DNA of 64,000 bases from Patescibacteria group bacterium (lineage in GTDB: Bacteria > Patescibacteriota > JABMPQ01): positions 142,039 through 206,038 of the forward strand of contig JBGTBM010000010.1 of NCBI GenBank assembly GCA_041749335.1. The letters run 5' to 3'. The position numbers and the translations under genes were made by a program. This document shows, in pieces, positions 1 to 56,732 of the stretch. The notes beneath the pieces were generated by a model. It did no database searches. It was not told the origin of the DNA and saw nothing but the letters and a program-made list of their open reading frames with translations. How positions within the stretch are numbered: the stretch's first letter is position 1; the number at the start of each line of letters is the position of its first letter.

Positions 1-1
1 A

Positions 2-1510
2 GATTGGGTCGATAAGTTAAAAAATTGCAAGAAAATTTATATCTGTTTTGATAATGATGAAGCTGGTCATAAAGGAGCTATGCGAGTAGCAGATATGATA
101 TATGAAAATACTGATTGTGAAACATTTAAAATTGATTTACCGGAAGAAGTCGGAGATGGAGGGGATATTACTGATTATTTAACAAAACTTAATGGCAATA
201 TTGAAGACTTATTTAGTAAATATTCAAGGCCTTATCCCGAAAGAATTGATACATCACAATTTAAACCTATTGTATTAAGCGATATTGTTAAGACGCTAGG
301 ATTAACGATTAAAAAAGATGAAACAAATAAAATCATAACTTTCCTATGCGAATTATCTGCATATACTGAAAGTTCCCAGTTTAATATTAGTTTTAACGCC
401 CCCTCCTCTACCGGCAAGTCTTATATACCTACAGAAATTGCACGCTTGTTCCCGGAAAAAGATATTGTCGAAATCGGATATTGTTCTCCTACAGCTTTTT
501 TCCATGATGTTGGAGAATATGATGAGGAAAGAAAAGGATATATTGTTGACCTGTCTAGAAAAATCCTTATCTTCTTAGACCAACCACACACCCAACTTCT
601 GGAAAGGCTAAGGCCTCTTTTATCGCATGATAAGAAAGAAATAAATATTAAAATAACCGATAAGAGCCAGAAATTTGGACTAAAGACAAAAAACGTTCTA
701 CTGAGAGGCTACCCTTCTGTTATTTTTTGTACAGCTGGACTAAGGATAGATGAACAAGAAGCAACACGATTTCTACTTTTAAGCCCCGAAACAAAACAGG
801 AAAAACTTAGAGAAGCAATACAAGAGAAAATTAAGAAAGAATCCGATTCCGCTGCATACAAGGAAGCCCTAAATAACAATCCTGAACGCAAATTATTACG
901 GAACAGAATAATGGCAATAAAGCAGGCAAAGATTAAGGAAATCAAAATCGCCTCCCCCGATATAATCGAGAAAAAAGTCTTAGATAATAAAATGTTGAAA
1001 CCTAGACACGCAAGAGATGTTGGTCGTCTCATATCGCTAATAAAAGCAAATGCTTTATTGAATTTATGGTTTAGGAAAAAGGAAGGATCAACAATTACTG
1101 CCAGTGATGATGATATTGAAAAAGCTTTCAAAATATGGGATTCAATATCAGAAAGTCAAGAATTGAATTTACCGCCATATATTTATAACCTTTACCACGA
1201 AGTTATTATGCCGGCCTGGAAAGAAAAAAACGAAGGACGATCGGAGGGATTTGAAGAAATTACAGGTGAGTTGGGATTATCACGACAAGATATTGTTCAA
1301 ATGCATTACAAAATTCACGGCAGATTTATAGCAGACTGGCAACTTAGACAGCATATAATCCCAATGCTAGAAACAGCGGGATTAATAATGCAAGAGCGAG
1401 ACCCAAGTGATAAACGTAAAATATTAATATATCCTACTCCCCTGTTAAACTCTGCAAATAAGAAAAACAATAGTGAGTCGAGTAGTGGGGTAAATAATTT
1501 AAAAATATGA
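2..1510 (+). CDS. Phage/plasmid-type DNA primase-helicase, 5'-partial (TOPRIM domain plus P-loop NTPase).
   Basis: The ORF is open from base 2 (DWVDKLKNCKKIYICFDNDEAGHKGAMRVADMI is a TOPRIM DxD/E-type motif). Walker A-like NAPSSTGKSY and Walker B-like ILIFLDQ follow. The ORF track starts at the first Met (80), but the frame is open to the window edge. Confidence 0.6.
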   Translation, partial: DWVDKLKNCKKIYICFDNDEAGHKGAMRVADMIYENTDCETFKIDLPEEVGDGGDITDYLTKLNGNIEDLFSKYSRPYPERIDTSQFKPIVLSDIVKTLGLTIKKDETNKIITFLCELSAYTESSQFNISFNAPSSTGKSYIPTEIARLFPEKDIVEIGYCSPTAFFHDVGEYDEERKGYIVDLSRKILIFLDQPHTQLLERLRPLLSHDKKEINIKITDKSQKFGLKTKNVLLRGYPSVIFCTAGLRIDEQEATRFLLLSPETKQEKLREAIQEKIKKESDSAAYKEALNNNPERKLLRNRIMAIKQAKIKEIKIASPDIIEKKVLDNKMLKPRHARDVGRLISLIKANALLNLWFRKKEGSTITASDDDIEKAFKIWDSISESQELNLPPYIYNLYHEVIMPAWKEKNEGRSEGFEEITGELGLSRQDIVQMHYKIHGRFIADWQLRQHIIPMLETAGLIMQERDPSDKRKILIYPTPLLNSANKKNNSESSSGVNNLKI

Positions 1511-1602
1511 CATCCAGTTGCAATACTTTATTTAAGGATTTAGCCAATAAAATCAACAATTTTACGTCTTATCTCTATTAATTTCGGTATTTTAAGAAAA
1601 AT

Positions 1603-2190
1603 ATGGCAAAACCATTAGCAGAACAATCCAATAGTATAAGTATATTTATGCTCAAAAAGTGGGGCTACATAAACTCAAAAGGCGGCCAATCTTGCGGAGT
1701 TTTAACATGGACTTCGTTCGGATATGAAAATAGTATTAATTTTAAGATTATTACTACAAGTAAAGATGAACCAGATGATTGCTATATAAAAATATCTTAT
1801 TCATATTCAGATATTTATAGCGATGATAAAGAATCTCTTGATTATAAAATAGAATTAACCACCACGGAGTGCAATTATGGAGGAACAAGATATTGGTTTA
1901 GATGTCCTTTAATAAGAAATGGTCATGCATGTAATAAACGAGTAGGTGTTTTGTATCAGGCGGGTAAATATTTTGGATGCAGATATTGTGCGGATATTTC
2001 GTATAAATCACAAAGACAAGGAGGTAATTATCGTGAAAGCTCAATAACAATTTATGATATTGAAAATTTTGAAAATGAAATAACAAAATATTATTATAAA
2101 GGAAAGCCAACCAAGAAGCATCTTCGTCTAAAAAAAATGCGAGATAGATTTGAGAAAGATTTTTATATTTCTGTTAGCTTACTTATATAG
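1603..2190 (+). CDS. Hypothetical Cys-rich (Zn-ribbon-like) protein inside the mobile element.
   Basis: CxxC-type pairs (CNYGG..RCP, GCRYCAD). Located between the primase and the recombinase. Confidence 0.4.
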   Translation: MAKPLAEQSNSISIFMLKKWGYINSKGGQSCGVLTWTSFGYENSINFKIITTSKDEPDDCYIKISYSYSDIYSDDKESLDYKIELTTTECNYGGTRYWFRCPLIRNGHACNKRVGVLYQAGKYFGCRYCADISYKSQRQGGNYRESSITIYDIENFENEITKYYYKGKPTKKHLRLKKMRDRFEKDFYISVSLLI

Positions 2191-2236
2191 AATTTGATAC
2201 TTTACTTATAATCAATAAAAAGATATAATATATACG

Positions 2237-2333
2237 TTGACCCACTATTAATAATTTTCCAAGGAATTTTTGTTTGTCGCTATGATGGGCGACTCTGCCA
2301 ACAAACTACTCCTTGGAGTAATAGTTGGGTCAA
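2237..2333. promoter_or_regulatory. ~97-bp nested near-perfect palindrome (TTGACCCACTATT..CCAAGGA..GTCGC-N8-GCGAC..TCCTTGG..AATAGTTGGGTCAA). Candidate recombinase att/res site or operator.
   Basis: Read directly from the sequence. Sits immediately upstream of the serine recombinase start (2368). Confidence 0.45.
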
Positions 2334-2367
2334 CCAGGGTCGTCCTTTTAGTTAATAAGATAAATAT

Positions 2368-3978
2368 ATGAATGAAGACAAACCTAAAATTAAATACTTT
2401 CTTTATACTCGCAAATCCTCAGAGGCTGAAGATAAACAAGTGGCTTCAATTGATTCTCAAATATCAGAATTAAGAAAAAAAGCTAAGCAAGTAAATATTA
2501 AGATCGTAAAGATATTTAAAGAATCTATGTCAGCTAAAGCTCCTGGTCGCCCCGTTTTTAACGAAATGTTAAGCAAAATTCAAAATGGCGAAGCTGACGG
2601 AATTTTGTGCTGGAAACTTGATAGGCTTGCCAGAAACTCAGTAGATGGAGGTCAAATTATATATTTACTGCAAAGTAATATTATTAAAAATATACAAGCA
2701 TATAGTCATAGCTATTATCCTAATGATAATGTTGTCATGATGTATGTTGAGTTCGGTGTAGCAAATCAATTTGTTAAAGATTTAAGCCAAAATGTAAAAA
2801 GAGGCTTTAATTCAAAAGCTCAAAGAGGATGGTTTCCTAACCGATTAACCCTGGGATATATGCACAATCCTAAAGGCTATGAAGATGGTAAGGAAATAAT
2901 CATTGATCCGGATAGCTTTAATGGTTTAAGAGAAGTATTTGATTTAGTTCTCACAGGTAATTATACGGTACCAGAAATATACAAAATTGCTATTAACGAG
3001 CTTTGTCTTAGAAATAAGAAGGGCAAGAAATTTTCACTAAGCACCTTATATAGAATATTAACTGATACATTTTATTATGGAGAATTTGAATATCCAAAGG
3101 GTAGTAGTGATTGGTTTACGGGTAAACACCATCAAATGATAACAGAAGAAGAATATGACAAGATTCAAATCATTTTAGGTAGAAAGGGCAAACCTCGCCC
3201 CAAGACTCATAAATTCGCCTATACAGGCCTTATACGCTGTGGTGAGTGCGGATGCAGTATAACCGCAGAAGATAAAATTAAAAAACAAATAAATGGTAAT
3301 ATACATAGATACACATACTATCACTGCACAAAACGTAAAAAAATACCCTGCTCCCAAAAAAATATAAGAGTTGAAAATTTAGAGAAGCAAATTAAAAATG
3401 TATTAGAAAAAATTGAAATTCCTAACAAGTTTTATCAGTGGGCATTAGATGAATTGCGGGAACGAAATAAAAAAGAATCCATAAATAGAGAAGAATTATT
3501 GTCTACGCAACAAAGACAATACAACAATTGTATCCAGAAAGTAGATAGATTGATTGATATGAGAACTAATGGAGAGCTTACAGAAGAAGAGTTTAAAAAT
3601 AAAAAGAGGGAATTAATAAAAGAAAAGGATAATTTCCAGAAACTTCTCAAAGACACAGACAACCGAGTAGACGACTGGTTAGACAAAGCAGAAGAAATGT
3701 TTAAATTTGCAGAAACTGCTAAATACAGATTTGAAAATGGCACCCTTGAAGATAGAAAGAATGTGCTTTCTATACTAGGTTCGAACCTCTTCCTAAAAAA
3801 CAATATTTTAAGTATACAAGTACAAAAACCCCTATTACTCATTCAAAAAGCCTCTTCTGAGATAAAAGCTTTTTCCAGAATGTTAGAACCTCAAACAATT
3901 GGCTTAAACAAAAGAAAAAAGAGAGCTTCTCGCTCTCAATTTCCTACACTATGGGACGTACAAGAATCGAACTTGTGA
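2368..3978 (+). CDS. Large serine recombinase/integrase (resolvase catalytic domain + recombinase domain + Zn ribbon + coiled coil).
   Basis: N-terminal YTRKSS..SIDSQ..DRLARN resolvase motifs. Zn ribbon CGECGCS..YYHCTKRK. Length 536 aa. Last 27 nt overlap tRNA-Lys. Confidence 0.85.
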   Translation: MNEDKPKIKYFLYTRKSSEAEDKQVASIDSQISELRKKAKQVNIKIVKIFKESMSAKAPGRPVFNEMLSKIQNGEADGILCWKLDRLARNSVDGGQIIYLLQSNIIKNIQAYSHSYYPNDNVVMMYVEFGVANQFVKDLSQNVKRGFNSKAQRGWFPNRLTLGYMHNPKGYEDGKEIIIDPDSFNGLREVFDLVLTGNYTVPEIYKIAINELCLRNKKGKKFSLSTLYRILTDTFYYGEFEYPKGSSDWFTGKHHQMITEEEYDKIQIILGRKGKPRPKTHKFAYTGLIRCGECGCSITAEDKIKKQINGNIHRYTYYHCTKRKKIPCSQKNIRVENLEKQIKNVLEKIEIPNKFYQWALDELRERNKKESINREELLSTQQRQYNNCIQKVDRLIDMRTNGELTEEEFKNKKRELIKEKDNFQKLLKDTDNRVDDWLDKAEEMFKFAETAKYRFENGTLEDRKNVLSILGSNLFLKNNILSIQVQKPLLLIQKASSEIKAFSRMLEPQTIGLNKRKKRASRSQFPTLWDVQESNL

Positions 3979-4024
3979 CCTTCTGCTTAAAAGGCAGCTG
4001 CTCTACCTGCTGAGCTAACGTCCC
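3952..4024 (-). tRNA. tRNA-Lys (anticodon UUU).
   Basis: Cloverleaf folded manually: GGGACGT/ACGTCCC acceptor, anticodon loop CUUUUAA, T-loop TTCGATT. 73 nt, no encoded CCA. Confidence 0.85.
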
Positions 4025-4048
4025 ATATAAATTAAATTATTAATGATT

Positions 4049-4170
4049 CTACGCTGTGACCTTTCCCGCCAAGCGGGACTGCTCCCCGCCTCGCGTCGAC
4101 GAGCGACTGCGAGTCGAGGCGGGTACCTGCTGCCTGCCCGCCGTAGGAGGGGAGCTAACGTCCCATAATA
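4049..4170. repeat. GC-rich (~70%) hairpin-dense element of ~105 bp flanked by a 16-17-nt direct repeat of the tRNA-Lys 5' end (GAGCTAACGTCCCATA at ~4010-4027 and 4153-4168).
   Basis: Sharp compositional island in AT-rich DNA. Hairpins CCCGC-caa-GCGGG and CCCCGCCTCG..CGAGGCGGG. The 5' part of the tRNA is duplicated (GGGACGTTAGCTC). Confidence 0.5.
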
Positions 4171-11125: not shown

Positions 11126-12175
11126 TTAATTTTGCTTATATTTAGAGCGAATAAATATATATATAAAAGCCGAAGCTATTAAGGTTAAAACTAAAATAAT
11201 TGTGGTAAATTGGGGAATAACAGCTTCGGTGCCATCAGTGCGCCATAACTCGCCGCATGATTTTTCATTATAGGTGCCGACATATAAATATTTTCCATAT
11301 ACTATCATGGACATCATGGCAATATTATTTTTTAAGCCAAATCCGCTCTGGCTTACTCGACTCCAGGCGCTTAAATCATTATTAAATCTCCACACTTCTC
11401 CCCCGCTCTCTTCGTTCCAGGTTCCAAAAAATAACTGCCCGCGAAATATTTCCATCGAATAAATGCCGATATTATTTATGTCATTTATTCCATTTCCGAT
11501 TATTTTATTCCAATTATTACTATCATATTTCCACAGCTGGGCTCCATTTGTTTTATTTAAAGTTCCTGCGTATAATCTTCCCTGATGCTCTTTTATAATC
11601 GGAATAGCGGTGTTATTTTTATCTCCAAAACCGTCTCTAATTTCATTATTTATGTTACTGCCGTCATATGAATAAATTCTCCCGCCGTCAACTTCATTTA
11701 TGGTGCTAATATATAATTTATTGTTTAGTTCTTCCATCGACATAAATTCTATATTGTTGGTTGAATCAATGCCCGAATTTACTATCAAATCCCAATTACT
11801 TCCATTGTGAACCCATAATTCTGCCCCCTGAGAAATATTCTTAGTACCAACATATAGCCGATTTTTAAACACAATCATTGAAGAAATTGAAGTATTATTG
11901 GCATTCCCTAGGCCACGATCCGCTATTTCTTCCCATCTAAACCCATCAAATCTACGAATTTCCGCCCCATCCAAAGAATTTTCAGCTCCGGAATATAAAT
12001 AATTTTTATATACTGCCATTGATTGAAAATTGATTGCCTTACTCTCTTGGGCGCTAATTTTATTCCAGCCGCCCGAAAAAAAGGCAGTAAATATTATTGC
12101 GCTTATTATAAATAATACAAAGACAACATAATAAATATCGATCTTCAACATTCTTTTTTTGATTTGTGCAATCAT
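11126..12175 (-). CDS. Repeat (beta-propeller-like) surface protein with a C-terminal TM anchor (..AVIPQF + TM + RSKYKQN).
   Basis: Reiterated ~45-aa blades (KN.LY.GT.N...GAELW). N-terminal TM/signal. C-terminal hydrophobic helix plus basic tail. Confidence 0.55.
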   Translation of the reverse strand: MIAQIKKRMLKIDIYYVVFVLFIISAIIFTAFFSGGWNKISAQESKAINFQSMAVYKNYLYSGAENSLDGAEIRRFDGFRWEEIADRGLGNANNTSISSMIVFKNRLYVGTKNISQGAELWVHNGSNWDLIVNSGIDSTNNIEFMSMEELNNKLYISTINEVDGGRIYSYDGSNINNEIRDGFGDKNNTAIPIIKEHQGRLYAGTLNKTNGAQLWKYDSNNWNKIIGNGINDINNIGIYSMEIFRGQLFFGTWNEESGGEVWRFNNDLSAWSRVSQSGFGLKNNIAMMSMIVYGKYLYVGTYNEKSCGELWRTDGTEAVIPQFTTIILVLTLIASAFIYIFIRSKYKQN

Positions 12176-23201: not shown

Positions 23202-23273
23202 AATGATTAGATAATCACGAAGCTAAAACTAATTTCATACAAATTGTACTTATTAGTATTAATCTCGTTTATT

Positions 23274-23311
23274 AATAAAAAAATCGCTCATTACCATAGA
23301 ATTGAGCGAAA
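23274..23311 (-). terminator. Hairpin CGCTCA-N12-TGAGCG plus T-run between surface-protein paralog 1 and rplJ. Terminator or rplJ leader structure.
   Basis: Read directly from the sequence. Confidence 0.4.
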
Positions 23312-23452
23312 TTACAACCATTACTAATCACTATTTTCTAATGACTAATAACCAGTTAAAACTCCCTCGGTAAGTTTTACGCATAAAATGCTACTTACGG
23401 TCTATGGTAAGTTAAAATAATGTTAATCTAATTACGATTAACTGTCAAGTGT

Positions 23453-51215: not shown

Positions 51216-53120
51216 TTAAATATTTTTTATTCTGACCAAGGTCCATGCTCCGCCCTCGCCTTCTTTAACCAATTGAAGTAATTTTACTTCATATTCCTGG
51301 CCGTTATGCTCCACTCTTACTCGCGCCTCTCCGTCCTCGGATAAAAATAGATCAAATACATCAGTTTCGTTATCCAGGCCAAATTTTTCCGGAAGTTCTT
51401 CTTGCACTACCTTGACCGGATCTAATCTCCATTGCTCCTCGCCATCTTCAACCGCTTTTTGTTGTTGCTTGATATCAATAATGTTGTAGGGAAAAACTTC
51501 TTTACTCGCGGATGAATAGCTTTCCTCCCAAACTCCTTCTCGATATTCATAATAGATTACATCTTTGTCGGCAAAATAATCATTGCCGTCCGCCAGCTTC
51601 CATTGATAGCCCTCCGGTTGAAATGATGCGGTTACGTCGCATTTTATCTTACTTTTTTCATTTATGCAATGCAATAACAATCTGCGCGCATTAGCATTGT
51701 CCCCGTATTCAACATAATAGTCCGAATCGGTAACATAACCGATTTTAGCCGCTCGCCAAAATTCATTTTCCTGCGGCTCCTCAACCGCTAGAATATTAAT
51801 GTTTTTTTCAATATATTTAAATACTTCCGTTAAATTTATTTTAGGCGCTGATGATTCTGCTTCCGCTGCGGCCAGGGACTGCCAGTTCAAATCCTTCGGA
51901 ATTTCTATCGTTTGTAATATTTTAATATAATCATTCTTATCTCCGGCTTCTCGACGATATATAACCTCTGACTGTTTGGCTTCAATATCGGCCTTGATTA
52001 TTTCAGAATACACACCCCTTTGGCTATCAACGAAATAAATATATTTATTGGTTTTATCCCAAAATAGGTCAAAAATTTGGTTGCTGCTATCACTGGTTTC
52101 ATAGATCACTTCCGGCTTGGAGCCATTGCTTTCAATTATTTCCACCGTAATTTTTTTTATTTTATCATCATCGGAATAAATAATATGATTATAGGCGATA
52201 AATTTTCCATCGGGCGACCAGCGAAGTTCATAAATATTGCCCGTCAAGCTCGCTAAGTCGGTAAATTCCCCCACTTCGCTAATTTTTTTGATTTCGGTTT
52301 TTTTAATGATATCCCCGGACATCACTTTATCCAAATAGACCATAGCATCATCACCGGGAGAGATTGCGATAGGCTTTACTTCCCATAAATAATCCCAAGA
52401 AACATTTCTCCATTCTACTCCGCGGAAGGCGGGAGAAATTATTGATCCTTGAATTTTCGCTTGATTGAGCCGATACTCGGAATTGTCATATTTTTCTAAA
52501 TAATGAAACTTGTCGCCCGCGGCGTTAAAACCTTGATAATGCACCGGGTGCAGATTGGCGGCCGGAGCTACTAATTCGCTGGCTACTCCATTTTCGTTAT
52601 GAAAAACCCAATAAGAATATTCTTCATTATTATAAGAACGCAAATAAGCCACCGTGCTATAATCCGGAGACATCCAAATTCCCATAGGGTAATAATCTTT
52701 TGAAAAGGAAGCAATTTTATTTTCCGAAGCCCCCTTAAAGTCTGCCGCCCACAAAATCATATGATTTAAATCATCCTGTTTTTCTCCCGGTTCGTAATAA
52801 AACAGATTTGTTTTGGTGGCTTGAGGATTGGCCATAATAGAAACGTCGTGCGCGATATCAATGGTAAATTTTTGCTCCCCGATTGAATCGATAAAATAAA
52901 TATCGCCCCACTTGGTTTTATCTTTATCAATATACTTCTCGCCGATCAACAAGGCGGATTTATCCAAAGAATTGTCTTGCGTTATCTTTTCATTATAATC
53001 ATCCTTTTCTTGATCATATTTTTCTTTGTAGTATTTCCAGCCATAAAAAAATCCCACCGACATTCCTCCCAATACCAATATTAATATAAAATTGATTATT
53101 ACCGCTTTAAATATTTTCAT
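51216..53120 (-). CDS. Membrane-anchored hypothetical protein with TolB/PD40-like beta-propeller repeats.
   Basis: N-terminal [12 protein letters not shown]-type PD40 motif. Confidence 0.5.
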
Positions 53121-53303: not shown

Positions 53304-54743
53304 CTAGCAGTTGTAGCGCCGCTTGCTGTCGGCGACCTCGCCGAAGGTAGCGATGGCTGCCTTGCGACCATTGCCATCGGCGTAGACCTGGACGTCCTTC
53401 GAGTCGGCATGTCCGAAGCTGAAGCTGTTGCGGGCCTTGAAACCGCGGCCCCGCTGGTTCTGGCTTTTCTTCCCGCCGTTGGTGTTTCCGGACTCGTAGC
53501 GCTCGGCATCCCGCTCGTACTTCTTGGCCACTGCCTTCTCGACAGCGACCGAGAGCGGAGTCGTCCAGGCGTCTCGCTCGTCCTTGCGCGGGACTCCCCG
53601 AAGGATGTTCCCGCAGCGGCTGCAGAGAACCACCGGCTTGTTCTTCACCACCGGCTTCCCCTTGTCGTCGAGAACGACCTGCCCCTTGAGGTTGCCCTGC
53701 TTGTGCACGATCCGCATGGGCTGCCAGGAGATCCACATCTTGGGAAGTGGAATGTCCTCGCCGGCGCGGTTGATGAGAATGACCTTGTCATCCTCGTCTC
53801 GAGCCACGTCAGCCATCGTCCCCCGCTCGGAACAGTGGGGATTGGAGCAGACGTGGACATCCTTGGCATCGACCTTTGGCAGGAAGACGGGCGGACAGTT
53901 GTTCTCGTCCAGCAGGCCGTCGAACAGGTCGCGGGCCCACTGGCGCGAGAGATCGTTCGCGCTCGGTGTTCTCTGATCTTCCTCCTTCTGGTCGCCGGAC
54001 TCCACGTCCATACCGACCATGAAGGCGTCGGCCTGAGACAGAAGCTTCTGCTCGCGCAGGTGCTCCTGCTCCTCACGCCGGAGCCTCTGCTCCTCGGCCT
54101 CCTGAGACATCTTCTGGATCTTCGCTTCCGCCTCCTGCTGCCTGTGCGCCTCTTCGTCCTTGCGCTGCTTGTACTTGCGCTGGGCGTAGGAGAAATCGAG
54201 GAAGATGTCGTCGCGGCCGAAGAATCGCATGAGCTGCGAACGACAGTCGGGGCAGACCGGGAACGGTCCACCGCCATCCTTGAGAGTCAGCAGGCGGGAC
54301 TGGAAGGCCTTCGCGAGAGCGAACTGCTTCTCCTCGAGAGGAGAGCGTTTTCCGCGCGTGATGCGAGTGACCTCCGCCATCTTGGACGGATTCACCGTCT
54401 TCACGCACTCCGGAGTTCCTTCGCTTCCCATCACCATCTCCTTCCCGCAGTCGGGACGAGCGGCGCAGATCACGGTCTTCTCGGGGTCGTAGTCGAGCTG
54501 GCGTTCGGCCGGCACGACCTCGGCCTTGGCTAGGCGCCTCTCTTCGTTTTTCTTGGCCTTGGCGGCGGCTTGAACGCGACGCCTGCAGTGGGAACAGAAG
54601 CCATCGGGATCGTTGTCGTTCCAGTAGTTCTTGCAGGGGTTGCCCCCTTTCGTCACTCCCGGACACATCTTGCCATCGGAACGCTTTGGTGACATCTCAC
54701 ACCTCTTTTTACTTCTTGGTGTTGTGGTTTTATGAACAGACAT
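53304..54743 (-). CDS. Compositionally foreign (~65% GC) gene encoding a Lys/Arg/Glu-rich multi-Zn-ribbon coiled-coil protein of unknown function. Likely start at Met17 (54695), which has the SD AAAGAGGTG.
   Basis: The GC jump is confined to 53230-54700. CxxC pairs (CSHC, CPDC, CSNPHC, CSRC). Long uninterrupted frame, with alternative-frame ORFs typical of high-GC coding DNA. Own terminator downstream. Confidence 0.6.
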   Translation of the reverse strand: MSVHKTTTPRSKKRCEMSPKRSDGKMCPGVTKGGNPCKNYWNDNDPDGFCSHCRRRVQAAAKAKKNEERRLAKAEVVPAERQLDYDPEKTVICAARPDCGKEMVMGSEGTPECVKTVNPSKMAEVTRITRGKRSPLEEKQFALAKAFQSRLLTLKDGGGPFPVCPDCRSQLMRFFGRDDIFLDFSYAQRKYKQRKDEEAHRQQEAEAKIQKMSQEAEEQRLRREEQEHLREQKLLSQADAFMVGMDVESGDQKEEDQRTPSANDLSRQWARDLFDGLLDENNCPPVFLPKVDAKDVHVCSNPHCSERGTMADVARDEDDKVILINRAGEDIPLPKMWISWQPMRIVHKQGNLKGQVVLDDKGKPVVKNKPVVLCSRCGNILRGVPRKDERDAWTTPLSVAVEKAVAKKYERDAERYESGNTNGGKKSQNQRGRGFKARNSFSFGHADSKDVQVYADGNGRKAAIATFGEVADSKRRYNC

Positions 54744-55638: not shown

Positions 55639-56403
55639 TTATTTATTAAATTTTTCCGAACCATTCCATGACAGCTCAAAAATATATTTCATAGTGTTAG
55701 CAATTTCCTGGCTCTCAATAATAACGCCGATGATTTTACCTTTATAAGTAGCGATAGCTAATTTATTGCAATAAATATTAATTTCAGCCGAAAAAGGAAA
55801 TTTATTTATCGGCACATACCTGCGATCTTTAGTCCCCTCTTTTTTTGGCAAAAAATTTCCCTTTTTGCTGGTATAAATAATTCTTTCCGGAATATTCTTT
55901 AGTTTCCGCGCCATTTCCTTGCGATGATCGGTTGGGCTGGGAGGCAATACTCGATAAACTTCATCCAAAGGAACAATTTGGTCAAGCCTCTCTACTTTGG
56001 ATTTGATCATATCGTCGCGAATTGATCTTAAACCTTCTTTCCCTTCAAAAAATCTCACCTTGGGTTTCTCTCCGCCAAGATTATACATAATATTTAATTC
56101 CGGAATTACATTTTTTATTTCTTCTTCTTTTTGCTTCAATCTAATTTGTTCGTTTTGAAGCAAATCTTTAAATTTTTCCGGAGATTCTGCGGTAAAATAT
56201 CTTTTTTTTCCCTTTTCAAAAGTTGATATTAGGCCTTTTTTCATCAAAGATTCCAATACCACATACGCCGTAGGGCGATTAATTTCCGCCTTTTTGGCAA
56301 TTTCCAAAACGCTGGCATAACCTAATTCCAAAGCTGATAAGTATATTTTTGCTTCTTTTGATTTTAAGCCTAAATTGGTTAGATCTTTGGGCAATATTGA
56401 CAT
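55639..56403 (-). CDS. TrmB-family transcriptional regulator.
   Basis: N-terminal wHTH (LGLKSKEAKIYLSALELGYASVLEIAKKAEINRPTAYVVLESLMKKGL) plus C-terminal TrmB-like domain. Confidence 0.7.
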   Translation of the reverse strand: MSILPKDLTNLGLKSKEAKIYLSALELGYASVLEIAKKAEINRPTAYVVLESLMKKGLISTFEKGKKRYFTAESPEKFKDLLQNEQIRLKQKEEEIKNVIPELNIMYNLGGEKPKVRFFEGKEGLRSIRDDMIKSKVERLDQIVPLDEVYRVLPPSPTDHRKEMARKLKNIPERIIYTSKKGNFLPKKEGTKDRRYVPINKFPFSAEINIYCNKLAIATYKGKIIGVIIESQEIANTMKYIFELSWNGSEKFNK

Positions 56404-56508: not shown

Positions 56509-56615
56509 ACCCTGAATCGGCGGTGGGATTCCTAACTGTGGCAATTTTTCGAACCTCTGCCTGCGGCAGACAGGCACGACTTATCCCGCTTAGCGGGTTG
56601 CTCTAGCCGATAGAT
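56509..56615 (-). other. tRNA-like fragment/pseudo-tRNA. It carries tRNA-Thr D-loop (GGCTAGAGCAAC) and T-arm (GGTTCGAA..AATCCCACCG) segments interrupted by GC-rich hairpins (CCCGC-TAA-GCGGG; CCTGTCTGCC-GCA-GGCAGAGG).
   Basis: Manual comparison with the adjacent tRNA-Thr. It does not fold as a canonical cloverleaf. Confidence 0.4.
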
Positions 56616-56659: not shown

Positions 56660-56732
56660 AGCCGACGGTGGGATTCGAACCCACGACCTACTGTTTACAA
56701 AACAGTTGCTCTAGCCGCTGAGCTACATCGGC
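56660..56732 (-). tRNA. tRNA-Thr (anticodon UGU).
   Basis: Manual fold: GCCGATG acceptor, D-arm GCTCAGCGGCTAGAGC, anticodon loop TTTGTAA, T-loop GGTTCGAATCC. Confidence 0.85.

Follow-up and report, generated by a model that had tools for sequence, protein, structure and literature searches.

A large serine recombinase docked on the 3′ end of tRNA-Lys in a Patescibacteria genome, and its counterparts at other tRNA genes

Background

The 3′ end of tRNA genes is the usual target of tyrosine integrases, and serine integrases, the main tools for the insertion of large DNA cargo, are thought to avoid tRNA genes. Among the large serine recombinases (LSRs), Ccr inserts at the extreme 3′ end of the conserved housekeeping gene rlmH/orfX without inactivating it. 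An attachment site inside an open reading frame (ORF), with a C-terminus that differs between the free and the integrated state, is familiar from mycobacteriophage integration-dependent immunity and from SSV-type integrases; these systems use tyrosine integrases, and the gene that is split is a repressor or the whole integrase. Serine integrases (S-Ints) have been described as ‘not known for targeting tRNA genes’, with 14/297 candidates ‘requiring experimental proof’ (Mageeney et al. 2020, PMC7192596), and in a survey of tycheposons and cryptic Prochlorococcus elements an LSR was found in 27/937 elements (Hackl et al., bioRxiv 10.1101/2020.12.28.424599). Here we analyse a stretch of 64,000 nucleotides (the window, whose positions are used throughout) from a Patescibacteria group bacterium (GenBank assembly GCA_041749335.1, contig JBGTBM010000010.1, positions 142,039 to 206,038 of the forward strand), at the left end of which the ORF of an LSR runs into the 3′ end of a tRNA-Lys gene on the opposite strand, and we compare this locus with related loci in other genomes.

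Results

The recombinase ORF ends inside tRNA-Lys

The features of the junction are as follows.

2368–3978, + strand: LSR, 536 aa, intact, with Resolvase, Recombinase and Zn_ribbon_recom domains
3952–4024, − strand: tRNA-Lys(UUU), intact, the proposed integration target (Rfam, 72.1 bits, full-model coverage)
3925–3951: predicted P arm, the element-side half-site of attL, inside LSR codons ..SRSQFPTL, placed by homology
3953–3954: predicted crossover dinucleotide GG, tRNA positions 72–71, placed from relatives
3955–3978: host-side half-site (B′ arm), the acceptor 3′ strand and most of the T-arm, which encodes the last codons of the LSR
3964–3972: T-loop block GAATCGAAC within the B′ arm
3911–3937, − strand: intrinsic-terminator-like hairpin GAGAGC-GAGAA-GCTCTC (3937→3921), then TTTTTTCTTT (3920→3911), from a terminator scan

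The 3′ end of the LSR ORF enters the tRNA gene by 27 nt (3952–3978), that is, by eight codons and the stop, and these read TGG GAC GTA CAA GAA TCG AAC TTG TGA, or W D V Q E S N L stop. Read as the reverse complement, the shared bases comprise the discriminator of the tRNA, its acceptor 3′ strand, the greater part of the T-arm (positions 65–50) and positions 49–47. An earlier note on this DNA had reported the opposite-strand overlap, which ARAGORN (tRNA-Lys(ttt), 3951–4025, − strand), Rfam and direct codon reading all bear out; it had placed about nine codons, ..TLWDVQESNL, in the tRNA, of which WDVQESNL (with the stop) does lie there, whereas T and L lie outside. The tRNA gene has no encoded CCA. 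As the same note held, what is docked here on the 3′ end of tRNA-Lys is the recombinase-proximal end of an integrative element, the remainder of which continues to the left beyond the window.

The enzyme is a large serine recombinase

Membership of the LSR class, which the earlier note had also proposed, is indicated by domain architecture and catalytic motif. Profile matches place PF00239 Resolvase at residues 11–154 (E = 1.2e-19), PF07508 Recombinase at 187–270 (E = 4.6e-09, above cutoff) and PF13408 Zn_ribbon_recom at 285–346 (E = 1.7e-10, above cutoff), and the protein matches PHROG 95 ‘integrase’ (E = 1.5e-69). In the motif of the nucleophilic serine, YTRKSSEAEDKQ, Y13, R15, S17 and Q24 are invariant across 34 aligned sequences, and the window’s LSR is full length and keeps all 84 family-invariant residues. 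A helix-rich region, looked at for the coiled-coil motif of the zinc-ribbon domain, gave a sub-threshold SHOCT match at residues 393–416. Similarity to solved LSR structures is confined to the N-terminal domain (3g13; TP901-1, 3bvp). The recombinase family is matched by 6795 proteins at E ≤ 1e-20, and the scores of the window’s LSR against the NCBIfam equivalogs, far under their cutoffs (CcrB 96.5 versus 900, XisF 93.5 versus 375, CcrC 79 versus 900), place it outside Ccr and XisF.

Docking on tRNA 3′ ends recurs across the clade

The survey set comprised 80 related loci from GTDB species genomes (the representatives surveyed exclude the window’s own genome), 74 of them evaluable and six running off their contig. 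The LSR ORF ends within an annotated opposite-strand tRNA at 41/74 loci (14 His, 11 Asn, 7 Gln, 6 Lys, 2 Ala, 1 Ile) and within an in-frame T-arm at a further 16, for a total of 57/74 docked loci; among the closest relatives (hidden Markov model score ≥ 800 bits) the count is 26/27. The docked overlap seen in the window is confirmed, and with 41 relatives on an annotated tRNA and 16 more on a T-arm, such overlaps are far beyond chance. Some target tRNAs were missed by ARAGORN because group I introns split those tRNA genes: introns lie in the anticodon loops of target tRNA-Asn genes of Patescibacteria-type genomes (L088, 14280–14617; L020, 4679–4975; related loci are cited by such numbers), and further intron-bearing targets were seen by eye at L002, L007 and L060.

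The frame of entry is fixed. tRNA position 73 is the first base of a codon in 63 unique attL sites, with the conserved C-terminal codons YSQSPxLL abutting it, and the T-loop block is the best-conserved part of all attL sites (1.3–1.9 bits per position). Because a single reading frame is used at all docked loci, the T-loop reads (D/E)SN, its reverse complement GAT TCG AAC encoding DSN, and an alignment of 33 homologues (51–60% identical) accordingly contains tails such as LLRGQDSNLRPSA, LLPGSDSNRRPID and QDSNL. Among the 120 closest proteins, 44 tails were flagged by script as T-loop-encoded, about 19 were seen by inspection to end in (D/N)(N/D)(V/I)RT, read from the P′ arm of the element, and most of the remainder stop three to four codons inside the tRNA (LLRG or LLRR, then stop). 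The clade extends to hundreds of loci in GTDB species genomes; its hosts are chiefly Patescibacteria, with Elusimicrobiota, Omnitrophota, Margulisiibacteriota, Ignavibacteria, Verrucomicrobia and others also represented, and it is apparently a big, undescribed clade of LSRs that target tRNA 3′ ends.

Short cores in relatives suggest that the overlapped bases are host DNA

Junctions were compared in relatives whose two ends could be mapped. The P0138 element, 13.5 kb long and with a primase that shares 72% identity with the window’s, occurs on many contigs with at least three left flanks and, at its right, three tRNA-Asn alleles, one of them intron-bearing, which begin to differ at position 68. 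Its attL consists of ..CACGCTG, the block GCTCCG and GTGGTAGGATTCGAACC, and its attR of a variable flank, GCTCCG and AATTGTAGACAATGTTAGAATC; GCTCCG, tRNA positions 74–69, is the sole block common to the junctions. L056 and L057 contain one and the same 6.25-kb Ignavibacteria element, inserted at a tRNA-Asn in the former and outside any tRNA in the latter, and the four junction halves have only TC in common, at positions 72–71; provided that the recombinase made both insertions, TC should be the central dinucleotide, because these are the sole common bases. At L024, on a tRNA-Lys, the two junctions diverge after position 67. The identity between attL and attR in mapped relatives thus comes to 4–7 bp at tRNA positions 69–74.

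A displaced 26-nt tRNA fragment (≤ 5 mismatches), sought up to 10 kb away, was present in none of 32 related loci, and seed-and-extend and fuzzy 26-mer searches of up to 34 related loci returned no displaced fragment save one 16-nt match (L051); in the window itself no second copy of the tRNA-Lys 3′ part was found. Because the cores span only 4–7 bp, the alleles differ and no displaced fragment is found, we infer that the overlapped T-arm and acceptor bases are host DNA, and the short cores would place attP across the 3′ end of the LSR gene itself. These results speak against the earlier note’s proposal of an element that brings along a tRNA 3′ part of its own and restores the gene on insertion, and the lack of a partial tRNA-Lys copy upstream, which that note had offered as a refutation, is no valid test for an enzyme of this class. 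Carried over from the relatives, the crossover in the window would lie at GG 3953–3954, with the P arm at about 3925–3951 and the B′ arm at 3955–3978.

The P arm of the P0138 element (L084–L089) encodes a CCA (TGG on the + strand) that follows the discriminator of tRNA-Asn; four native trailers were seen at its attR, and none encodes CCA. Detection of attR by inverted-repeat symmetry was dropped, the symmetry of P versus P′ being too weak (9/22 positions, by hand).

Candidate attP sites carry a T-loop mimic

Two loci, L116 and L117, have the usual P arm and a core, GCTCCGC, that is followed by 12–13 nucleotides and then (A/G)TTAGAACC, with no tRNA on either contig, and they belong to proteins ending ..LLR-x-(C/L)D(N/D)(V/I)RT... 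By their sequence we take these sites to be attP, either in free forms or at internal tandem junctions. Nine-mers resembling GTTAGAACC stand at virtual positions 55–47 in five P′ arms (L117, L116, the P0138 element, L024 and L056), and the real T-loop block of the B′ arm, ATTCGAACC, stands at positions 60–52, so that the P′ mimic lies exactly 5 bp further out. In serine integrases the zinc-ribbon domain (ZD) motif of attB lies 5 bp nearer the centre than that of attP (Rutherford et al. 2013, PMC3783163), and the shift seen here appears to match that zinc-ribbon-domain model of attP/attB discrimination.

The inner T-loop-like block of the P arm, GGATTTTGA, sits in the B-type register, which may be linked to apparent tandem arrays (L024, L084, possibly L057). 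At the left junction of L024, a 75-nt copy of the LSR 3′ end is joined to the P′ arm (2040–2114 versus 11514–11588). At L084 (1–728), an older recombinase gene lies upstream of the current element. At L057 (6585–6640), the P arm and core at the right junction lead into sequence that is not tRNA, in which a T-loop-like ACTCGAA stands 6 bp further out. We read these three loci as signs of tandem or successive integrations at one tRNA.

A terminator-like hairpin lies in the recombinase tail

The hairpin at 3911–3937, whose start lies 15 nt beyond the 3′ end of tRNA-Lys, is antisense to the LSR C-terminal codons KKRASRSQ; the window’s 48-nt trailer folds at −15.6 kcal/mol. Across the family, terminator-like trailers were found in 22/60 unique sequences versus 4.7% of control antisense windows from the same genes, and the mean minimum free energy of the 48-nt trailers was lower than that of the controls (−10.3 versus −7.0 kcal/mol; P = 6e-5, Mann–Whitney). 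The hairpin arms covary in several relatives, for example GGACTTTGAG/CTCAAAGTCC versus GGATTTTGAG/CTCAAAATCC, and the encoded amino acids differ. The hairpin would terminate transcription of the tRNA, and on the simplest view the element thereby makes good the terminator that its insertion displaces.

The visible cargo is a probable replication module

Two genes precede the recombinase gene in the window.

1–1510, + strand: primase-helicase gene, the 3′ 1.5 kb, cut by the window edge (222 codons missing; frame open to base 2)
1603–2190, + strand: Cys-rich protein of unknown function, 195 aa (CNYGGTRYWFRCP...CNKRV...CRYC), accessory to the core module

The earlier note’s description of a 5′-truncated TOPRIM and P-loop gene was correct: the window fragment equals residues 223–724 of the 724-aa protein P0121 (100% identity over the C-terminal 502 residues). 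In P0121, Toprim_2, Toprim_4 and Toprim match at 190–282, of which the window holds the end of the TOPRIM domain (IYICFDNDEAG), and there are weak DnaG-primase matches (PDB; NCBIfam TIGR01391). An AAA+ P-loop domain follows, with Walker A APSSTGKS at about window positions 398–421 and a Walker B-like ILIFLDQP at about window positions 563–586, both invariant among 27 primase-helicase relatives; the C-terminal part is helical and winged-helix-like, and relatives are 65–77% identical. For an AlphaFold2 model of the window fragment (mean predicted local distance difference test score, pLDDT, 70), the top Foldseek matches in the PDB are MCM helicases (E ~1e-5, TM score ~0.35). The cargo thus appears to encode a DnaG-type primase fused to an MCM-like AAA+ ATPase, with moderate confidence in the MCM fold assignment, and these results agree with the earlier suggestion of a replication module.

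The Cys-rich protein has no Pfam, PHROG or NCBIfam match and 23 homologues in all. One of them, 50% identical and in the same gene position, belongs to the L114 element, which sits on a tRNA-His and carries, in order, DUF5659, small ORFs, the primase-helicase, a 181-aa protein, the Cys-rich homologue, a 53-aa protein and the LSR. Those elements read that share the window’s primase-helicase module carry restriction-modification and helicase genes, a TPR protein or small unannotated genes. The more distant L056 (6.25 kb) has no large ORF of primase-helicase size, its genes being unannotated, and the attP-bearing L117 has phage-like recombination genes (Rad52, PD-(D/E)XK, RuvC) and an HTH_3 repressor-like gene. 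Capsid, portal, terminase and conjugation genes were not called in the P0138, P0129 and L114 elements, several small genes of which have no annotation, and no tyrosine recombinase was found in the visible part of the window’s element or among the called genes of the mapped P0138 element.

LOOT RNA (Rfam RF03000, an orphan candidate small RNA) was detected at 71–74 bits in 3/9 related loci scanned (L088, 6701–6832; L002, 7592–7706; L051, 6297–6415) and not in the window. The copy in L088 lies inside the mapped P0138 element, and those in L002 and L051 lie on the strand opposite to the LSR, 2–4 kb upstream of it, in elements with unmapped left ends; LOOT RNA may be a component of these elements.

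Nature of the element

We consider it probable that positions 1–3954 of the window are the right-hand, LSR-proximal end of a small and probably self-replicating integrative element. The LSR would join attP, lying across the 3′ end of its own gene, to an attB whose centre falls on the final base pairs of the acceptor stem. The integrated element would give the tRNA just its last two to three nucleotides, which are identical bases, and a new 3′ trailer with a terminator hairpin, while the acceptor 3′ strand and the T-arm would stay host DNA, read through by the LSR ORF to the first stop; because the ORF reads into the host T-arm, its tail would be WDVQESNL here and of the (D/E)SN type across the clade. 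The T-arm would serve as the host half-site, and the P′ arm would carry a T-loop mimic 5 bp further from the crossover. The primase and MCM-like ATPase would replicate the excised circle: we read the element as integrative and as replicating after excision because of its primase-helicase gene content and because no virion or conjugation genes were called. The same element in different contexts has been seen for two relatives, the P0138 element and that of L056/L057, and the window’s element would share with its relatives the crossover, the P′ arm and mobility.

Several observations weigh against this interpretation. No tRNA is present at 17/74 loci, chiefly of more distant members. The crossover in the window is transferred from relatives that use other tRNA targets and whose recombinases are at most about 60% identical, and in L024, which does target tRNA-Lys, positions 72–71 are GC, a palindromic and hence awkward central dinucleotide. 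Similarity to the T-loop was weak in a test of three P′ arms (6/10, 6/10 and 5/10 positions; shuffle P = 0.05, 0.05 and 0.22), and the P arm has no convincing mirror copy of the P′ motif; the P′ mimic is kept on the strength of its recurrence in L116, L117 and about 19 protein tails. No candidate for a recombination directionality factor emerged, no dedicated test having been made, and small ORFs without annotation and an HTH_17/MerR gene in L114 are mere leads. For the window’s own copy the case for mobility comes entirely from the relatives: no attR, empty site or second context was obtained, its left end lying beyond base 1. Look-ups with the exact LSR and DnaJ proteins yielded a single Logan contig, of 11.9 kb, whose start is within the window, those with the full-length P0121 and a 172-aa membrane ORF returned no record, and a scan of Joint Genome Institute metagenomes with P0121 reached 72% identity at best.

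An alternative is an element that integrated by the serine route and is now a fixed, immobile remnant, which may lack its left end or have lost its directionality factor; in its favour, neither a second context nor a circular form was found in the look-ups. Relatives do leave remnants, such as the LSR 3′ fragment of L024 and the older LSR beside a decayed tRNA-like stretch in L084, and L082 apparently has an uncalled recombinase. We nevertheless consider a remnant unlikely, because the LSR is full length with every family-invariant residue and because the visible primase-helicase part, the Cys-rich gene and the trailer terminator are intact. A different route, in which the element brings at least some 27 nt of tRNA 3′ sequence of its own, the T-arm among them, crosses over inside the tRNA and leaves a displaced fragment at its far end, is the standard arrangement for tRNA-targeting islands (Islander logic, PMC4383910), and the 16-nt match in L051, to tRNA positions +2..+17 and 10.4 kb upstream, could be taken for such a fragment. 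This route is very unlikely given the cores of 4–7 bp, the 32 loci without a 26-nt fragment, the single element abutting three tRNA-Asn alleles that differ from position 68 inward (one with a group I intron) and the lead of the core into a non-tRNA P′ arm in L116 and L117.

That the window holds the integrase end of a prophage is suggested by the matches to PHROG 95 and to primase/helicase PHROGs and by the phage-like recombination genes of L117, but we regard this as highly improbable: a family alignment found one distant match among 2.9 million IMG/VR contigs, and the elements that share the module measure about 13.5 kb where both ends are mapped (P0138), those read having no capsid, portal or terminase gene called. 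For the same reasons, and because no conjugation gene was called in the relatives either, the earlier note’s view that the cargo is typical of phages or integrative and conjugative elements finds no support. A housekeeping resolvase or invertase beside a tRNA by chance, with the overlap an accident of a missing stop, could account for the match of PHROG 125 ‘DNA invertase’ to the N-terminal half of the LSR; the full three-domain architecture, the occurrence of identical elements in different contexts and the same arrangement in one frame at 57/74 loci, over many tRNA species and phyla, make its probability negligible, and the family survey rules out the housekeeping resolvase that the earlier note had named as a refutation. 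The preferred reading is thus an integrative element docked by a serine enzyme.

Other features of the window

An exact 16-nt direct repeat, GAGCTAACGTCCCATA, occurs at 4012–4027 and 4152–4167 (window 4012–4167); on the minus strand it consists of the 2 nt that precede tRNA-Lys and the first 14 nt of the gene. Between the two copies lies a 124-nt insert with a GC content of about 65%, versus 37.7% for the genome, with hairpins CCCGCCAAGCGGG and GGCGGGCAGGCAG.. and a 9-nt match, AAGGTCACA, to the variable and T-stem region of the tRNA; the region resembles a disrupted copy of tRNA-Lys, situated a short way upstream of the real gene. As an RNA gene, the insert (4028–4151) was rejected, with no Rfam match and a fold z-score of just −2.6, and its end, GTAGAATCATTA, was rejected as a relic P′ arm because the orientation does not fit. 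A disrupted copy of a tRNA-Thr 3′ part (56516–56612), broken up by short GC-rich hairpins (TCTGCCTGCGGCAGACAGGC, CCCGCTTAGCGGG), lies directly downstream of the real tRNA-Thr (56660–56732, − strand), and at about 575–640 of L084 a similar hairpin, CCTGCCTGCCGGCAGGCAGG, splits a tRNA-Asn-like T-arm beside the older recombinase gene. These GC-rich hairpins may belong to one family of small insertions found in tRNA copies that have decayed.

A Cys-rich ORF of 479 aa (53304–54743, − strand; about 62% GC versus 37.7% for the genome) has no Pfam or NCBIfam match and is probably recently acquired DNA; it lies between genes for a beta-propeller-like protein (51216–53120) and a TrmB-family regulator (55639–56403), near tRNA-Thr and tRNA-Tyr. 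The ribosomal protein L10 leader (RF00557, 59.5 bits; 23269–23425, − strand) is an ordinary host feature.

Discussion

Implications of a proposed T-arm target

A broader reading joins these observations, and we put it forward as tentative: half of attB would be the near-universal T-arm, with easy retargeting between tRNAs, compensation for the lost terminator, C-termini that depend on state and tandem accretion. In such a scheme the zinc-ribbon domain would read the T-loop block and the recombinase domain the acceptor and T-stem, so that small changes could retarget the enzyme between tRNA species (His, Asn, Lys, Gln, Ile and Ala among close relatives). The host would be compensated by a replacement tRNA terminator, antisense in the integrase tail; the C-termini of the integrases would differ between free and integrated forms, because attP lies inside the ORF; and the regenerated junction may remain attB-like and so give rise to tandem islands at one tRNA.

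A clade that docks systematically on the last base pairs of tRNAs, with an att geometry that is evident from the sequence itself, offers a testable model of zinc-ribbon recognition of a conserved RNA-gene motif and a catalogue of attP/attB pairs on universal targets. If the reading is true, the clade would provide natural integrases for the tRNA genes of any genome, with no need of a landing pad. Independently of that reading, the clade offers a first way into the mobile elements of the candidate phyla radiation (CPR), of which few are described, and an explanation of the recurrent odd tails (..DSNLRP.., ..DNVRTC..) of annotated ‘recombinase family proteins’.

Comparison with known systems

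Literature searches on tRNA-targeting serine integrases in CPR bacteria and Saccharibacteria found no reports. Like tycheposons and cryptic Prochlorococcus elements, the present elements are small and combine a site-specific integrase with primase/helicase genes and variable cargo; those, however, are marine cyanobacterial elements with overwhelmingly tyrosine recombinases, whereas these occur chiefly in Patescibacteria and other uncultivated phyla, and we did not find the present att geometry described in Hackl et al. (bioRxiv 10.1101/2020.12.28.424599). The nearest named NCBIfam models, SCCmec Ccr and XisF, are likewise LSRs, but the scores fall far under their equivalog cutoffs, and target and carrier are different. 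In integration-dependent immunity and SSV-type systems a gene is also altered by integration, but here the last few codons alone would change.

With the tyrosine-integrase islands of tRNA genes (the Islander/Williams sublocation classes, P4-like), the locus has in common that the element docks at the 3′ side of a tRNA that is kept intact and that the integrase gene is adjacent to and convergent with the tRNA gene; unlike Islander-type islands, it has a serine enzyme, its relatives have neither a long regenerated segment nor, in the 32 loci searched, a displaced fragment, and the predicted crossover lies 1–2 nt from the discriminator. The resolvase catalytic, recombinase and zinc-ribbon domains are those of phiC31, Bxb1, A118/LI, TP901-1 and SPbeta SprA, and the relatives also agree with phage-type serine integrases in their att identity of a few base pairs and in a P′ motif 5 bp outward of the attB half-site (PMC3783163). 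They depart from phage-type serine integrases in that the target is the extreme 3′ end of a tRNA gene and not a protein-coding or intergenic site, in that attP lies within the integrase ORF, so that integration would swap the C-terminal tail, in that the P arm would double as a tRNA terminator, and in that the carrier is small and non-phage.

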